From assembly GCA_964472085.1 (NCBI GenBank), contig CAYYIW010000014.1, positions 21,734-85,733 of the forward strand: a DNA stretch of 64,000 nt, in the 5' to 3' direction. Below are positions 58,159 to 62,925 of the stretch, one piece after another. The notes beneath the pieces are model-generated. The model made no database searches and was not told the origin of the DNA. It saw nothing but the letters and a program-made list of their open reading frames with translations. The position numbers were made by a program, and so were the translations under genes. Every line of letters begins with the position of its first letter. Positions within the stretch are counted from its first letter, which is position 1. The DNA is from an uncultured Rikenellaceae bacterium. Its GTDB lineage: Bacteria > Bacteroidota > Bacteroidia > Bacteroidales > VadinHA17.

Positions 58159-59709
58159 CTAATTGCTCCGGGGGAGAAAAATAATGAATTTTGTACCCTT
58201 ATTTACCTGGCTTTCAACTTTAATTGAGCCATTCAATTCATCAATTATTTTCCTGACATAACTTAGTCCCAGACCAAATCCCTTTACATTATGAAGGTTT
58301 CCCGAAGGTACACGGTAGAACTTATCAAATATCCGTTTAAGGTTCTCCTTACTTATCCCTATTCCTTTATCCTCGATAGTGATCAAAATACCTTTTTTAT
58401 TATTCCTGGTGGAAATAGTAATAAGCGGTTTTCCCCCGGAGTATTTTATAGCATTATCAATGAGGTTGGATATCGAGTTGTGAAAATGTATCTCGTCTAT
58501 ATACACCATTGAAGATACTGCCTGGTAGTCCTTAATAATCTTTCCATCGTGGCTCTTTATCTGCAATTCGAAATTATCAACAGCCCTGTCAATAATACTG
58601 TGAATATCCAATTCCACAAGGCGCAGCTTAAGCCTGAGTTTCTCAAAAATGGCCATCTGAAGGACCTTTTCAACCTGAAACTTGAGCCTTGTGCTTTCAT
58701 CACTTATTACCCTGGCCAGGTTGTCCATGTTCTTATCTTTATCGGAGATCGATTTATCAGCTATCATTTGTGATGCCAGCGATATGGTGGAAATGGGTGT
58801 TTTTAGTTCATGGGTCATATTATTTATGAAGTCACTCCTTATTTCGGAGATCTTTTTCTGCCTGAAGATCACTATGAAGGTCCCGGTGGAAAGTATAAGG
58901 AGCAGCAGTGTAAACAGCAGGGACAGGAAGCCCAGGCTCCCTATTTTTTCAAATTTATACTGTCCTTCCTGCAGGCAGTATAAAACAATCTGATTCTGGC
59001 TGGGTACCGGATCATTTGGGAAAAGCTGTATAATAAATTTATTGGTCCCGGGTTTGTCAGTGAATCCCGGGGTTTTCCATATGCTACCATAGCGGCCCGA
59101 CCTGATTGAGAATTCAAAATCGAGATTTATGCCAACATTATCAAGCGCTCTGCGGATCTGTTTCTTCAGATCATTAAAATCAATTCTTTCCCTTATGTCC
59201 GGTGAGGTACGGAGTATCTTTTCCATTATCTTCTCCAGGAAAATTATTTTATTGGTCACTCTTCCGGATATTTCAGAATTCATTATCTCCTGTGATGATT
59301 CTGATGCCTCTTCCGAAGGGAAGGGTGGTGGGTTTTCGGATGTGATGAATATTTTATGTCCCGCGCTTGTAATTGTAATGGGCTGGTCGGGATTGTCAAG
59401 GCCATAAGTTTCAAGAAGGCCTGAATTTGGCTGATAACCCTGTAATTTCCTGGCAAGAGGTGAGTTCGGTGGTACGATCGCAGTAATAGAATCAATGGAT
59501 GATGAGTCAATGTCTTCATCTATGTTCCGGATAAGTTCTTTTTCTTCGAGATTGAGAACAACGGATTCAAGAGCCTTGTTGGCAGAGTACCTGAATTGCT
59601 GATCGGTTATGGCAATAGCATTACGTATCCAGTATAATTGAATAAGAAGCAATCCTGATATAGCCAGGAAAAAGAAAGCTGCCAGTAAAACTATTGTTCT
59701 CCGCTTCAT
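58159..59709 (-). CDS. Sensor histidine kinase
   Basis: 516 aa with two TM segments, the H-box MTHELKTPIS, the N-box NLIDNAIKYS, and the G-boxes DKGIGIS and GFGLGLS. Confidence 0.92.
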   Translation of the reverse strand: MKRRTIVLLAAFFFLAISGLLLIQLYWIRNAIAITDQQFRYSANKALESVVLNLEEKELIRNIDEDIDSSSIDSITAIVPPNSPLARKLQGYQPNSGLLETYGLDNPDQPITITSAGHKIFITSENPPPFPSEEASESSQEIMNSEISGRVTNKIIFLEKIMEKILRTSPDIRERIDFNDLKKQIRRALDNVGINLDFEFSIRSGRYGSIWKTPGFTDKPGTNKFIIQLFPNDPVPSQNQIVLYCLQEGQYKFEKIGSLGFLSLLFTLLLLILSTGTFIVIFRQKKISEIRSDFINNMTHELKTPISTISLASQMIADKSISDKDKNMDNLARVISDESTRLKFQVEKVLQMAIFEKLRLKLRLVELDIHSIIDRAVDNFELQIKSHDGKIIKDYQAVSSMVYIDEIHFHNSISNLIDNAIKYSGGKPLITISTRNNKKGILITIEDKGIGISKENLKRIFDKFYRVPSGNLHNVKGFGLGLSYVRKIIDELNGSIKVESQVNKGTKFIIFLPRSN

Positions 59710-59733
59710 ACAGTTACAAAAGTAAGTGTATAT

Positions 59734-60435
59734 ATGTTATTCATATACTATTTAACTTTCTTTAACAACAATGGAGTACAACTATCTGATTTCAGGACAC
59801 CGGAGGGTCATCTCGAAGAAAAAGTAATTAAAATTAGTCGTTTCAGAAGTGATTCGGCTGCCTGTACAAAAGAGGTTCTTGCCTATCTGGATACAAAGCC
59901 AGATATTGAGTATTTTATTAAATTTCATAAGCACAGGAACTCATTTACAAAAGTATCAATGGTCAGAAACTGGGTGGAAATACCAAAGTATAATGTGAAC
60001 GTTGGAGATATTCAGTATTCTTTATATGGTAAACGTCGAAGAATGGTTGTTATAAGAAATCTGGATGATGATGATCCCAGTAGCTATTCAGGAATAGTGA
60101 CTAATAACAATTCATTATCAAATAAAGAGGTTTTTTGTTTCTATGCACTTCGAGGTGCCATTGAAAGAAATTTTGATGATCTGAAGAATAATTTCAACTG
60201 GGGTAGATTGCCCTTCAGCTTTTTGAACGAGAATACAGTATTCCTTTTAATCAGTGCCATAGCTTATTGCATTTATCAGTTTATTATCGACTTGTTTAGT
60301 AAAAAAGTTGATTTTGTGAAGAAGACATTCAGACTTAAGAATTTTATATTTCATTTTATTACCGTAGGATCTGAATGGGAGGAAGAGCAAACTTTAAGAT
60401 TGTTTACGGATAAAGAGTATAACCTTTTGATTTAA
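59734..60435 (+). pseudogene. 5'-truncated IS4/IS1380-type DDE transposase remnant
   Basis: The 233-aa ORF carries the C-terminal Y-(2)-R-(3)-E-(6)-K signature (YALRGAIERNFDDLK) and a probable second catalytic Asp region (FRSDSAA). The N-terminal half with the first Asp is missing. The ORF abuts the histidine kinase start. Confidence 0.65.
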
Positions 60436-60632
60436 AAATAGTCTTTGTATTGTTGAAAAAAATTGTTAATTATTAGTACTTGTTAATAAATAGATGCATT
60501 GATAATTAACAAATATTTTATATGTACTAAGAAATAGATGTTTATGGTTATTTATAATGTTTAAATTTTTTTTTAATAAATTAATTTTACTTTATAAATT
60601 TAATGTTATAATAAATTTAATGTATTAACCTG

Positions 60633-60815
60633 ATGAAAACAGAGAATCATAGCTACAAAGATTTAAATGAAATCAAGAATAAAAGTCAACTTGATTTTAG
60701 GTATGTTTTTGGATCTATTCGACTGATTTTAAGAAAATTACTGCTTAAATCTGATTCAGATTTAATTGTGAATGAATTTATTAATTATAAATTTAAGATC
60801 CCCCATATTAAATAA
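60633..60815 (+). CDS. Hypothetical 60-aa ORF (possibly the detached N-terminus of the next ORF)
   Basis: ATG-initiated with no recognisable motif. It ends 3 nt after the following reading frame opens (60812). Confidence 0.3.
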   Translation: MKTENHSYKDLNEIKNKSQLDFRYVFGSIRLILRKLLLKSDSDLIVNEFINYKFKIPHIK

Positions 60816-61468
60816 TAATAAATAACGTAATAGGATTTTCACTTGAAGACTATTCTCTGTACATTCAGAAGGAATTAGCACCTCTTTATCTTAAAATCAA
60901 AAAAATCATTATTGAGGCAGAAGAAAACGATCCCGAAAAGGAGTCTTACATAGCTCCGTTTAATGAATTGAGAAATACACTTGATCATGTAATGAAAAGT
61001 GCATTAAATGGAGATGAATCAGAAAGAGAGAGAAATTTAAAACATGCAAAAGTCCATTTAAATCGAGCCGGATATGATGTATTCGAGATACTTTCATCCA
61101 ATTTAGGCCTGAAAATAACTAAATCGATTGAAAAATACTCTTCAGAAATTATTTCTCGAGTTTTCCCTGCATATTATACAGAATACCAACCAAAGCTTTT
61201 TAATATTCAAGGTCGATTGATAGAAATAAGAAATGCAAAAAATGTAGACGAAAATTGGGATCCAGGTTCATTTGAAGCATTTGAAAAGATTAAAGATGAG
61301 ATATTAGAAATTTATCAACTTATTTACAGATATATTCCACTATTAGAAAAAGAAAGGAAGAGAAGTTTATTAAAGTTAATCTGTAATAATGCGATTGTAA
61401 TTATTACTACATTAATAATAGGAATAGTAGTCGGGTGGGTCATATATAAAATGGGATGGGGTGGATAA
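60812..61468 (+). CDS. Hypothetical protein with Rx4H (HEPN-like) motif and C-terminal TM helix; start codon unclear
   Basis: The frame is open from 60812. The first conventional start is TTG 60968, which would put the motif ELRNTLDH (R..H at 60971..60988) at the extreme N-terminus. The protein is helical with a C-terminal hydrophobic helix, AIVIITTLIIGIVVGWVIY. Confidence 0.45.
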   Translation: MIINNVIGFSLEDYSLYIQKELAPLYLKIKKIIIEAEENDPEKESYIAPFNELRNTLDHVMKSALNGDESERERNLKHAKVHLNRAGYDVFEILSSNLGLKITKSIEKYSSEIISRVFPAYYTEYQPKLFNIQGRLIEIRNAKNVDENWDPGSFEAFEKIKDEILEIYQLIYRYIPLLEKERKRSLLKLICNNAIVIITTLIIGIVVGWVIYKMGWGG

Positions 61469-61477
61469 TTCAATTCT

Positions 61478-61617
61478 TATAATAAAAAATTAAAAAGGGA
61501 CCGGACAGATTGTGACCCCGATTGAGTCGAAAAAAGTCTTAAACTTAATTCGATAGTAACCTGCCCGGTATTGATATTACTTGATTTTATGTTTTAAATA
61601 TAAAGGAAATATAGAAT
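61478..61617 (-). ncRNA. Structured repeat unit copy 1 (candidate small RNA; promoter box degenerate)
   Basis: The stem is ACCGGACAG (61500..61508) / CTGCCCGGT (61561..61569), 8 of 9 pairs. On the minus strand it is followed by CCCTTTTTAATTTTTT. It shares flanking motifs with copies 2 and 3. Strand assignment is tentative. Confidence 0.35.
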
Positions 61618-61828
61618 TTATTACATCATCGTATTTGATCGTTTTATTTTCAATATTAATCTCTTCAGAATTTCAAACTTGTCATCGTATTTGCGATATT
61701 TAAATATGAATTTTATTCGTGTTTAATCCATCGTTATACATCGCTCCATTATTACTAATATGGATTCGTCAACTTTTTTATGATAACTAATTTAATTTGC
61801 TCAATAATTAGCTATATTAGCATACCCA

Positions 61829-61969
61829 TATAATAAAGAAAACTGAAAAGGAACCGGACGGATTGTTACACTATTTTTCGGAAAAGCTTCATAACCGAAC
61901 TTTAATGACATCCCGTCCGGTATTTTTATAATTTGATTGCACAGTAGTGATACAAAGATAATATAGAAT
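61829..61969 (-). ncRNA. Structured repeat unit copy 2 (candidate small RNA gene)
   Basis: The stem is ACCGGACGG (61853..61861) / CCGTCCGGT (61913..61921), 9 of 9 pairs. The minus-strand -7 box TATCTTTG lies at 61953..61960. The minus-strand tail after the stem is TCCTTTTCAGTTTTC. Confidence 0.4.
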
Positions 61970-62215
61970 GGGATTCATTATCATTTTCTTCACTATTTTA
62001 TTATATATATGTTAATTTAGACAAATTCTAAGTCCATTTGTTCTTGAATAATTGTATTATTGTCATATAGCTATAATGGGGATGGGAAATAGTAGTGAGA
62101 TAACCTCGATCTTAAATAATTGATCGGGGCTTATTAGCTTATTATTATTGATTTGGTGGATGCTTAAAATAATTTGAAGTATCTTTGAATAGACTAATTG
62201 AATTGAACCTCAGTT

Positions 62216-62351
62216 TATATTAAAAAAATTTTTATTTAAGTGCCAGATTGTTAAACTTTTGTTAATTACGTGTTTTAACGATACACTTGCGGAATTTAGA
62301 CATTATATTTGTAATGGATTTGGCACGAAATTTGAATACAAAGATATAGAG
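62216..62351 (-). ncRNA. Structured repeat unit copy 3 (candidate small RNA gene)
   Basis: The stem is GTGCCAG (62240..62246) / TTGGCAC (62320..62326). The minus-strand -7 box TATCTTTG lies at 62339..62346. A T-run follows on the minus strand. Confidence 0.35.
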
Positions 62352-62387
62352 GTTTTTTTCATAGGTTAGGTTAGTTTTAGGGTTATC

Positions 62388-62417
62388 AAAAACGTGGGGC
62401 TGGCGATCGTCAGCCCC
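62388..62417 (-). terminator. Rho-independent terminator of the rnc-side operon
   Basis: The minus strand reads GGGGCTG-acgatcgc-CAGCCCC-acg-TTTTT. The stem overlaps the stop codon of the 171-aa ORF. Confidence 0.75.
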
Positions 62418-62925
62418 TTCTTTTTTGTGCTTTCCCAGAATAATTGCGTACTCTGAGTATGTTTATATTCTTCTCCCTTGCAAAGTAATACAGTCGTTTT
62501 CGAATTAAAGCAGCCTTATGTTTTTGCAGCCAGTTAAGGTTTATAATAAAAGAAGAACCTTCTTTAAAAATAAGAATGGCTTTCTTTTGACCCGATGGCA
62601 TTACAATATCTTTTACCCGGATCCATTCAAAAGTATGTTTTTTGGGTTTCAACAAACCATACCTGAATTCAATTTTGTCATTGTCAATGGAAAAGAATAG
62701 ATCTTTTCTTTTTATTGTGGCAAATGAAGCTATAATGGCAACAACAACACTTATGCCGAAAGGTGCCGAGGAAAGGCCGGCATTAATACTTTTATGACCG
62801 AATACAAGACTGACAAGGAGAATATAAATGCCTGCAAGAAAAAACAATCCTGCAAAAGCCCATATAAGAAATTTTCTGCCTTTTGAAAATTCTTCTTCAG
62901 ACAGATTGAAGTACAGATTTTCCAT
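62410..62925 (-). CDS. Hypothetical membrane protein (two N-terminal TM helices + small soluble C-terminal domain)
   Basis: 171 aa with TM segments FLIWAFAGLFFLAGIYILLVSLVF and FGISVVVAIIASFATI. There is a basic C-terminal tail. No family recognised. Confidence 0.6.
   Translation of the reverse strand: MENLYFNLSEEEFSKGRKFLIWAFAGLFFLAGIYILLVSLVFGHKSINAGLSSAPFGISVVVAIIASFATIKRKDLFFSIDNDKIEFRYGLLKPKKHTFEWIRVKDIVMPSGQKKAILIFKEGSSFIINLNWLQKHKAALIRKRLYYFAREKNINILRVRNYSGKAQKRRG

Follow-up and report, generated by a model that had tools for sequence, protein, structure and literature searches.

Two orphan hairpin repeats within an IS1380-family insertion and an insertion junction that imitates a third in an uncultured Rikenellaceae bacterium

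The DNA considered here is a 64-kb window from an uncultured Rikenellaceae bacterium (GCA_964472085.1, contig CAYYIW010000014.1), within which all positions are counted, and the region of interest is the intergenic stretch at 61478-62351 that a sequence-only reading had described as three diverged copies of a hairpin unit and proposed as tandem small RNA (sRNA) genes. Of these three reported units, only copies 1 and 2 are real repeats. Comparison with related genomes shows the third to be the right end of an IS1380-type insertion fused to the promoter of an ancestral sRNA. Copies 1 and 2 lie within the passenger DNA of this insertion and are true paralogues of each other, orphan duplicated sequences rather than a conserved RNA family. 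The best explanation of the locus as a whole is a composite of the insertion, the copy 3 junction and a reading of copies 1 and 2 as hairpin modules of the minus strand, to which we give an even chance of being correct.

The letters from which the three units were assembled are present as described. GATTGT anchors occur at 61508, 61861 and 62246, accompanied by the stems of copy 1 (ACCGGACAG/CTGCCCGGT, 61500-61508/61561-61569), copy 2 (ACCGGACGG/CCGTCCGGT, 61853-61861/61913-61921) and copy 3 (GTGCCAG/TTGGCAC, 62240-62246/62320-62326), by A-rich left flanks and downstream ACAAAGATA(AT)ATAGA motifs and, as literal sequence on the minus strand, by TATCTTTG at 61953-61960 and 62339-62346. The region is also free of notable open reading frames (ORFs), as claimed, since the longest stop-free frame in 61470-62400 has 57 codons and a search for coding remnants there yielded nothing longer than 57 amino acids. 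A peptide similarity (VTI.PVPF) considered as a coding trace proved to be the translated conserved arm, disrupted by a 1-nt indel, and was rejected. A scan for tRNA and tmRNA genes returned no hits.

The insertion spans 59798-62300 and is delimited by comparison with relatives that lack an insertion sequence (IS) at this place. A gene for a flanking protein of 166 or 171 amino acids is found in many relatives, and in four close IS-free genomes (L025, L028, L029 and L030; 83-93% protein identity) and two more distant ones (L032 and L033; 69-72%) it lies about 310 nt from a histidine-kinase gene. The window matches this ancestral spacer, at 93-97% identity, only at 59681-59797 and from 62300 onwards, and the approximately 2.5 kb enclosed by these two edges therefore constitute an insertion that replaced about 97 nt of ancestral intergenic DNA. 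This lineage-specific insertion is a 5'-truncated IS1380-family transposition unit with passenger DNA, oriented along the plus strand. It contains half of a transposase gene, a 60-amino-acid ORF, a HEPN-like gene and roughly 800 nt of non-coding DNA, copies 1 and 2 included, and its last stretch is the left part of copy 3. The C-terminal half of the IS1380-family transposase is encoded at 59803-60435 on the plus strand (Pfam PF13701; NCBIfam NF033539) and matches positions 208-405 of the 419 positions of NF033539 with 101 bits (E 5.6e-29), a score that falls under the full-length cut-off because the gene is truncated; the insertion thus carries a recognizable IS1380-type DDE transposase. As called, the transposase ORF has 233 amino acids (59734-60435, plus strand) and starts in ancestral DNA, 59734-59797 being 93-97% identical to the IS-free relatives, so that its ATG and first approximately 21 codons are fortuitous and the transposase remnant begins at about 59798.

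The right edge of the insertion, CTTGCGGAATTTAGA (62286-62300), lies exactly at the break in homology. It contains CTTGCGGAATTTAG(A/G), which is identical at 10-11 of 14 positions to the right inverted repeat (IRR) of ISEcp1, ACGTGGAATTTAGG (PMC7864471). Both ATTGTTAAACTTT and CTTGCGGAATTTAG(G) are common to this insertion end and to the IS-bearing relative L077 (1-2372; about 70% nucleotide identity in the flanking genes), which carries at the same place an IS1380 transposase 71% identical to that of the window, followed by a different cargo, an SDH-type protease and a 67-amino-acid ORF, and by the end CTTGCGGAATTTAGG, which adjoins the same sRNA promoter sequence. As the left end and half of the transposase have been deleted from the window insertion, a left inverted repeat and direct repeats of 4-5 bp are not visible. 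An IS1380 relative from a viral contig (51-53% amino acid identity) was tried as a reference for the ends and rejected, its own ends being unrelated.

Copy 3 straddles this right edge. Its left part (62216-62300, plus strand), composed of an A-run, GTGCCAG at 62240-62246, GATTGTTAAAC and the IRR-like CTTGCGGAATTTAGA, is the right-terminal region of the insertion and hence a fragment of a mobile-element terminus, an outcome that the sequence-only reading had itself named as fatal to its proposal. Its right part (62300-62351, plus strand), with TATATTTG (62304-62311), TTGGCAC (62320-62326), GAAATTTG (62327-62334) and ATACAAAGATATAGAG, is the ancestral sRNA promoter region: homology with the IS-free relatives starts again at 62300-62303, with 95-97% identity in L025, L028 and L030, and the sequence is also conserved in L032, L033 and L077. 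The 5' arm GTGCCAG was sought in six relatives and found in none of them. The 3' arm, the ACAAAGATATAGA motif and the overlapping minus-strand box all fall within the promoter and 5' end of a plus-strand FopS-like sRNA, and the box (62339-62346) reads TATCTTTA, TATTTTTA or TATCTTCA in the relatives.

Strict alignment of copy 3 to copies 1 and 2 gave no signal, and nhmmer profiles established no link in either direction. A covariance model of copies 1 and 2, run with filters off over 1 kb, scored its training copies at 134-135 bits and missed copy 3, the best fragment of which reached 8.3 bits (E 1.3). The minus-strand fold of copy 3 is not significant (z -0.57), and its hairpin is more stable on the plus strand (-20.1 kcal/mol) than on the minus strand (-11.5 kcal/mol), the opposite preference to copies 1 and 2. 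Permissive alignment to copies 1 and 2 did give a weak collinear signal (z 3.7-4.5), and a pairing such as GTGCCAG/TTGGCAC next to GATTGT arises in about 0.5% of shuffles. The 7-bp pairing across the junction, improbable by chance yet unconserved, is treated as a coincidence.

Since copy 3 is not a member of the repeat, the covariation argument fails. Four covarying stem positions had been taken as the signature of selection on structure; three of the four depend on copy 3, and what is left is one compensatory pair between two sequences. The original column alignment was anchored on the stems themselves, and in a sequence-based alignment the stem of copy 3 falls outside the stem columns of copies 1 and 2. 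In the 9-bp clamp shared by copies 1 and 2, 18 of 18 stem cells pair, with seven invariant pairs, one compensatory change (A-U/G-C) and one G.U/A-U change. The inner 5-bp stems reported for these two copies have non-homologous 5' arms, shifted by about 6 nt in the near-gapless model alignment; only the 3' segment of each pairing is homologous between the copies, so that these stems do not represent covariation, and short inner stems of this kind are expected by chance within a 50-nt loop. A covariation-supported RNA family comprises several homologues whose compensatory changes exceed those expected from phylogeny, and there are two members only. A compensatory change in an inverted repeat also fits terminal repeats bound by a protein and cannot on its own separate an RNA from a DNA function.

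The homology of copies 1 and 2 is the part of the three-unit claim that stands. The copy 1 unit (61478-61660), consisting of an A-rich flank, the hairpin, a ATATAAAGGAAATATAGAAT block and a tail, and the copy 2 unit (61829-62016), neither assigned to a strand as a unit, align with a Smith-Waterman score of 54 versus 23.4 +/- 2.8 in shuffles and with z values of 9-12 under four scoring schemes. Identity is mosaic, with 79% in the flank, 89% in the 5' arm, 58% with many indels in the interior, 80% in the 3' arm and 85% in the ATAYAAAG..AATATAGAAT block, and drops to background by about 61680/62040; the spacers between the units are unrelated (z 0.8). Because the hairpin flanks are homologous on both sides, the two copies point to a segmental duplication and not to independent insertions. 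The homologous block runs from about 55 nt upstream of the -7 box of copy 2 to just beyond the U-rich tract, an extent that would match the one expected for a small transcription unit. Sibling contigs of the same organism (L001-L003) are 99.8-100% identical over 4.3 kb and thus uninformative for comparison; those from other samples show a 7-nt tandem indel (GCTTATT) at 62129, in the spacer after copy 2, and a T61876C polymorphism in the copy 2 loop.

Further members of the repeat were sought by several routes. The covariance model of copies 1 and 2, used in a search of the kind that the sequence-only reading had proposed for three copies, was run on the window plus 13 related and 41 viral loci and recovered its two training copies and nothing else, and no additional copies of the units were found in the rest of the window. 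Rfam 15 gave no match at gathering score anywhere in the window, and a scan in E-value mode, likewise proposed, found nothing credible over the hairpins and a sub-threshold FopS match beside copy 3; a weak match to 6A RNA (18.2 bits, E 2.7, 61793-61852), which touches the left flank of copy 2, is at chance level. Exact patterns returned only chance or coding matches, six for AAAAGGNACCGGACNGATTGT in species-representative genome contigs, nine for ACCGGACNGATTGTN{45,68}CCGGTATT in metagenome contigs, with the same outcome for three patterns in viral contigs, and since these patterns are exact and include flank bases, they can find only close relatives in the same context and miss dispersed copies resembling miniature inverted-repeat transposable elements (MITEs). 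Comparison of 61470-62300 with plasmids and phages by blastn revealed nothing meaningful. The HEPN-like ORF has homologues (49-63% identity) in five other contexts, none of which is followed by a unit. In another genome (L013, 1790-1895), the DNA downstream of a HEPN-like homologue forms an unrelated long hairpin, CGCTAACTGA/TCAGTTAGCG, that encloses GGTTTTCCCAA..TTGGGAAAACC and is preceded by GATTGTG; neither BLAST nor the covariance model detects any similarity between it and copies 1 and 2.

Each of the two copies forms a hairpin whose G+C clamp of 9-12 bp encloses an interior of about 52 nt (range 51-55 nt). The copy 1 hairpin (61500-61569, minus strand), the clamp of which, ACCGGACAG/CTGCCCGGT, reaches 12 bp when two G.U pairs are counted, folds alone at -26.9 kcal/mol on the minus strand versus -16.9 on the plus strand, and the copy 2 hairpin (61853-61921, minus strand; clamp ACCGGACGG/CCGTCCGGT) at -28.8 versus -26.0 kcal/mol. 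The minus strand is thus favoured by 10 and 2.8 kcal/mol, respectively, because G.U pairs turn into A.C mismatches on the plus strand. Minus-strand folds of the whole units are also more stable than those of shuffles, at -26.9 kcal/mol (z -3.6) for copy 1 and -32.0 kcal/mol (z -3.4) for copy 2. On this strand each hairpin is followed by a U-rich tract, CCCUUUUUAAUUUUU at 61485-61499 in copy 1, where 17 nt separate its end from the stop codon of the convergent ORF, and UCCUUUUCAGUUUUC at 61838-61852 in copy 2, and the pyrimidine-rich run noted after these two stems is conserved. No hairpin of the window other than that of copy 2 combines a long loop, a perfect 8-bp G+C stem and a T-rich tail. 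A perfect Bacteroidota -7 box, TATCTTTG (61953-61960, minus strand), stands 32 nt upstream of this stem; by an estimate from composition, about 1.6 such boxes are expected by chance on both strands of 930 nt of AT-rich DNA. The proposed arrangement of promoter, hairpin and U-tract accordingly persists as hairpins and tracts in copies 1 and 2 and as a box in copy 2, and does not hold for the boxes of copies 1 and 3; for the predicted RNAs of roughly 100-115 nt, a minus-strand RNA of about 105 nt is possible from copy 2, and the box of copy 1 is degraded.

Ranked first, with a probability that we place near the midpoint between true and false, is the reading of copies 1 and 2 as putative ends of minus-strand transcripts. 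The G+C clamp, the interior of about 52 nt and the U-rich tract would together stop or end transcripts of the minus strand, either read-through from the operon of rnc and the 166-amino-acid protein or an RNA of about 105 nt that starts from the TATCTTTG box of copy 2. Such stopping would protect the imported module, which is transcribed in the other direction, against antisense transcription, and copy 1, having lost its promoter box, would serve only as a second stop. As to the features of intrinsic terminators, a G+C stem with a U-rich tail exists on both strands, better on the minus strand, and the loop lies outside the usual 3-8 nt.

Several observations weigh against this assignment. The copy 1 sequence aligned to the copy 2 box is TTCCTTTA, in which A2 and G8 are lost, and no -33 TTTG is present upstream of the copy 2 box. 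Ordinary terminators in the window have loops of 4-7 nt versus 51-55 nt in copies 1 and 2, and a consensus terminator scan does not call the two hairpins. The best-conserved 10-mer of the units, AATATAGAAT, is not explained by a minus-strand promoter and resembles ATATAGAGG at the 5' end of the plus-strand sRNA. The clamp arms start with CC and end with GG, as the termini of the IS1380 family do, and under permissive scoring the left halves of the units weakly resemble the IS right end (z 3-4; about 4 against the end in the window), which would suit an origin at the DNA level, as inverted repeats, better than selection on RNA. In a shuffle control, 245 of 500 shuffles reached the observed covariation, so that two sequences provide no power, and as none of the collections searched yielded a homologue of copies 1 and 2, there are no further sequences in which the pairing could be compared.

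The form of the arm ends and the likeness to the IS end belong to the first alternative, in which copies 1 and 2 descend from mobile-element termini as relics, a reading that we consider possible, albeit unlikely. In one version, the arms CCGGACNG...CNGNCCGG are the inverted-repeat ends of a MITE-like deletion derivative of the IS1380 type; in another, the whole units are older, decayed duplicates of the junction between the IS right end and the sRNA promoter. The compensatory change would then reflect the fit of both arms to one transposase and not RNA pairing. The units lie inside an IS1380 transposition unit and are oriented like its right end, and their clamp arms extend to imperfect inverted repeats of 13-16 nt. 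Copy 1 is also collinear with the IS end of L077 (z 3.2; TTAAACTT..AATT..ATA..AC.TG..CGG.ATT.A), and the right halves align to the sRNA promoter region with z values of 2.0-2.8, with crossed comparisons flat and AT-rich control segments at -0.9 to +1.0. However, many alignments were tried, which makes z values of 3-4 fragile, copy 2 reaches a z of only 0.9 against the L077 end, and profile hidden Markov models (HMMs) show no relationship in either direction. There are no target-site duplications and the hairpin flanks are homologous between the copies, the arms are unlike both the CTTGCGGAATTTAG end of this IS and the ends of a 51%-identical full-length relative, CCATCCCCAAACAT, and there are no other copies within the 64 kb. 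Two looser likenesses to the IS right end were noted, ATGTTAATTTAGAC at 62008-62021, after copy 2, and ACTTGTTAATAAATAGA at 60481-60497, which is 46-62 nt past the transposase stop, at the place expected for the end of a compact IS1380 element; they may be traces of one-ended transposition events in succession or chance matches in AT-rich DNA.

It is doubtful that both copies represent previously undescribed structured RNAs of about 105 nt, transcribed from the minus strand and mobile as passengers of IS1380-type units. We are equally sceptical of the roles that such RNAs would have, namely acting on the HEPN-like membrane module or on host targets through a conserved 5' single strand that contains AAUCAA.

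The least support among the three remaining readings goes to plus-strand cassette junctions, in which the terminator of an upstream cassette precedes TTGATT...ATAYAAAG..AATATAGAAT as the promoter or leader of a short downstream transcript, either a diverged paralogue of the FopS-like sRNA or a message for a tiny hydrophobic peptide. This improbable arrangement would account for the position of AATATAGAAT as the best-conserved block and for its resemblance to ATATAGAGG, and copy 2 has both a plus-strand AUUUUUAUAAUUU tail after its hairpin and an ATG after the A-rich block that opens a 15-codon hydrophobic ORF, MGFIIIFFTILLYIC. However, copy 1 has no equivalent ATG and indels shift the frames, hydrophobic peptides are the default product of T-rich DNA, the plus strand lacks a suitably placed canonical -7 box, the sequences that follow ATATAGA do not resemble FopS and are not matched by the sRNA profile, and the copy 1 hairpin is 10 kcal/mol weaker on the plus strand.

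The proposal from which the analysis set out, three tandem minus-strand sRNA genes with promoter, covarying clamp and U-tract that perhaps act as antitoxins to the convergent ORF, is already largely refuted and very improbable. Copies 1 and 2 do have their hairpins and U-rich tracts, and copy 2 its -7 box, and the rare pairing and weak permissive alignment of copy 3 speak for it as well. Against these, copy 3 spans the junction between IS and target, with a 5' arm in 0/6 relatives, folds better on the plus strand, escapes the covariance model and the profile HMMs, and has an unconserved box that lies over the 5' end of a conserved plus-strand sRNA. The geometry likened to 3'-overlapping type I toxin-antitoxin pairs is likewise absent, as there is no overlap and the putative copy 1 RNA ends 17 nt beyond the stop codon of the ORF. 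The convergent ORF is a member of a family of about 211 amino acids and not a small toxic peptide, its start codon is lost in the window, and its homologues elsewhere are found without a hairpin unit; the locus does not fit a type I toxin-antitoxin pair. Integron-type attC or other recombinase sites, suggested by the variable centre, the imperfect inverted-repeat form and the cassette-like spacing of these units of about 70 nt, are scarcely credible, given arms (ACCGGAC/GTCCGGT) that by inspection do not contain the RYYYAAC/GTTRRRY core pair, conservation that reaches well past the palindrome on both sides, cassettes that contain no ORFs and neighbourhood gene calls that include no integrase.

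The convergent ORF forms part of the passenger, a decaying two-gene module at 60633-61468 (plus strand) that consists of the 60-amino-acid ORF (60633-60815) and the HEPN-like protein (Rx4H), whose transmembrane helix is C-terminal. The frame of this protein is open from 60812 and has ATA at 60830-60832, where homologues have ATG, and the gene is therefore probably a pseudogene. The module is also found in L031 and L012-L014, as a protein of 58-60 amino acids and one of about 211 amino acids with an invariant Rx4H motif (RNTLDH) and a C-terminal membrane helix; its contexts vary, and one adjoins a type III restriction-modification pair. PADLOC, Pfam and NCBIfam contain no family for the HEPN-like protein or its 60-amino-acid partner.

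The sequence that supplied the right part of copy 3 belongs to a FopS-like sRNA at 62340-62425 (plus strand; Rfam RF04319), with a single-stranded 5' region UUUUUUUCAU of the anti-start-codon type and a terminator hairpin at 62396-62417. RF04319 matches over its full length at 62352-62429 with 36.3 bits (E 0.002 over the 1.2 kb searched), and the counterpart in L032 scores 37.0 bits; neither reaches the family's gathering score of 56. The window sequence was compared with L025, L028, L030, L032, L033 and L077. A core of 48 nt (ATATAGAGGTTTTTTTCATAGGTTAGGTTAGTTTTAGGGTTATCAAAA / AUAUAGAGGUUUUUUUCAUAGGUUAGGUUAGUUUUAGGGUUAUCAAAA) is invariant in six aligned genomes, in which the flanking protein is 69-93% identical to that of the window. 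The L077 core differs at its 5' edge only (ATATATAGG) and keeps 38 nt (GGTTTTTTTCATAGG...GGGTTATC), and ATATAGAGG at the 5' end of the sRNA is invariant in 6/7 genomes. The core is followed by one of three unrelated terminators, each a perfect hairpin with a T-rich run: GGGGCTGGCGATCGTCAGCCCC, GAGAGCCGC..GCGGCTCTT or GTGAGCCGC..GCGGCTCAC. A constant core with an exchanged terminator is the pattern that an sRNA made of a seed plus a terminator shows. FopS is such an sRNA; it represses mRNAs of the susC type at the start codon and has a canonical sigma-ABfr promoter (TAnnTTTG) directly upstream of its transcription start (PMC11697453). In the window and its relatives, GAAATTTG or GATATTTG, i.e. 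GA(A/T)ATTTG (62327-62334), agrees with this box at 7/8 positions and ends 6-9 nt before the invariance begins, and the perfect TATATTTG (62304-62311) stands about 30 nt further upstream, 40 nt before the start of the RF04319 model. Both boxes are conserved and are candidate promoters of the plus-strand sRNA; TTGGCAC and ACAAAGATATAGA lie between these boxes and the sRNA. The FopS family is further marked by multiple paralogous copies and by binding of RbpB; a profile built from the relatives found no second copy of the sRNA in the window.

The spacer between the histidine-kinase gene and the sRNA has taken up IS1380-family elements with different cargo in two lineages, those of the window and of L077, and in both the shared right end CTTGCGGAATTTAG(A/G) stands a few nt upstream of the TATATTTG box of the sRNA. 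The spacer could be an insertion hot spot, or an old shared insertion could have undergone exchange of its cargo. The IS-free genomes L025, L028, L030 and L032 (L033 being more diverged) have a palindrome, AATTAACA-N14-TGTTAATT, about 55-95 nt upstream of TATATTTG; the IS-bearing genomes instead have TTGTTAA direct repeats with an 11-nt spacing (window 62248-62268; L077 about 2322-2342). The palindrome is a candidate regulator site, perhaps for the adjacent OmpR-type response regulator, and was deleted by the insertion in the window.

A three-member covarying RNA family beside a putative toxin would have amounted to a new tandem sRNA/antitoxin system, a reading that does not hold. The locus serves as a worked example of how an IS/target junction together with a conserved sRNA promoter can imitate a third repeat and manufacture apparent covariation. 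What remains is an orphan pair of long-loop, G+C-clamped hairpins in IS passenger DNA, be they transcript ends, sRNAs or an inverted-repeat relic; if they did encode RNAs of about 105 nt, they would constitute a mobile sRNA module rather than a relic. The by-product is a strongly conserved FopS-like sRNA of environmental Bacteroidales beside a two-component system. Its site has taken up cargo borne by IS1380-type elements on two occasions, and the window insertion removed a conserved upstream palindrome there. This sRNA locus is the more promising object for studies of sRNA regulation in Bacteroidota, and the most useful products of the analysis are this conserved sRNA next to an apparent IS1380 insertion hot spot and the corrected map of the locus.

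Among known systems, MITEs and the small palindromic repeats exemplified by Correia and ERIC elements are imperfect intergenic palindromes of about 70-150 nt that are associated with ISs and, when transcribed, can function as terminators or be cut by RNase III. Like them, copies 1 and 2 are imperfect palindromes in intergenic, IS-linked DNA; they differ in that only two are seen in the 64-kb window, with homologous flanks and no target-site duplication. With intrinsic terminators and terminator-type sRNAs they share a G+C closing stem with an A-tract upstream and a T-tract downstream, so that each strand has a hairpin and then a U-rich tail, and copy 2 has in common with sRNAs made of a 5' single strand plus terminator a sigma-ABfr-type -7 box upstream. 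Unlike ordinary terminators and sRNAs, the two copies have an interior of 52-55 nt, are conserved at no other locus and, in copy 1, have lost the promoter. The insertion resembles the ISEcp1-type units of the IS1380 family (PMC7864471) in having a transposase followed by passenger genes and a similar right boundary, and its passenger may have been captured by one-ended transposition; its cargo is a HEPN-like module and not a resistance gene, and its left end is deleted. The sRNA of the window, from an uncultured sediment lineage of Bacteroidales, differs from FopS/GibS of Bacteroides (RF04319; PMC11697453) in a GAGG/AUAUAGAGG extension 5' of the model start. It shares with them an intergenic location, a length of about 75-85 nt and a 5' strand with a U-run and CAU (GUUUUUUUCAUAGG versus the consensus GUGUUUUUCAUGG), followed by UUAG.UUUA.GGUUA..AAAA and a Rho-independent terminator.

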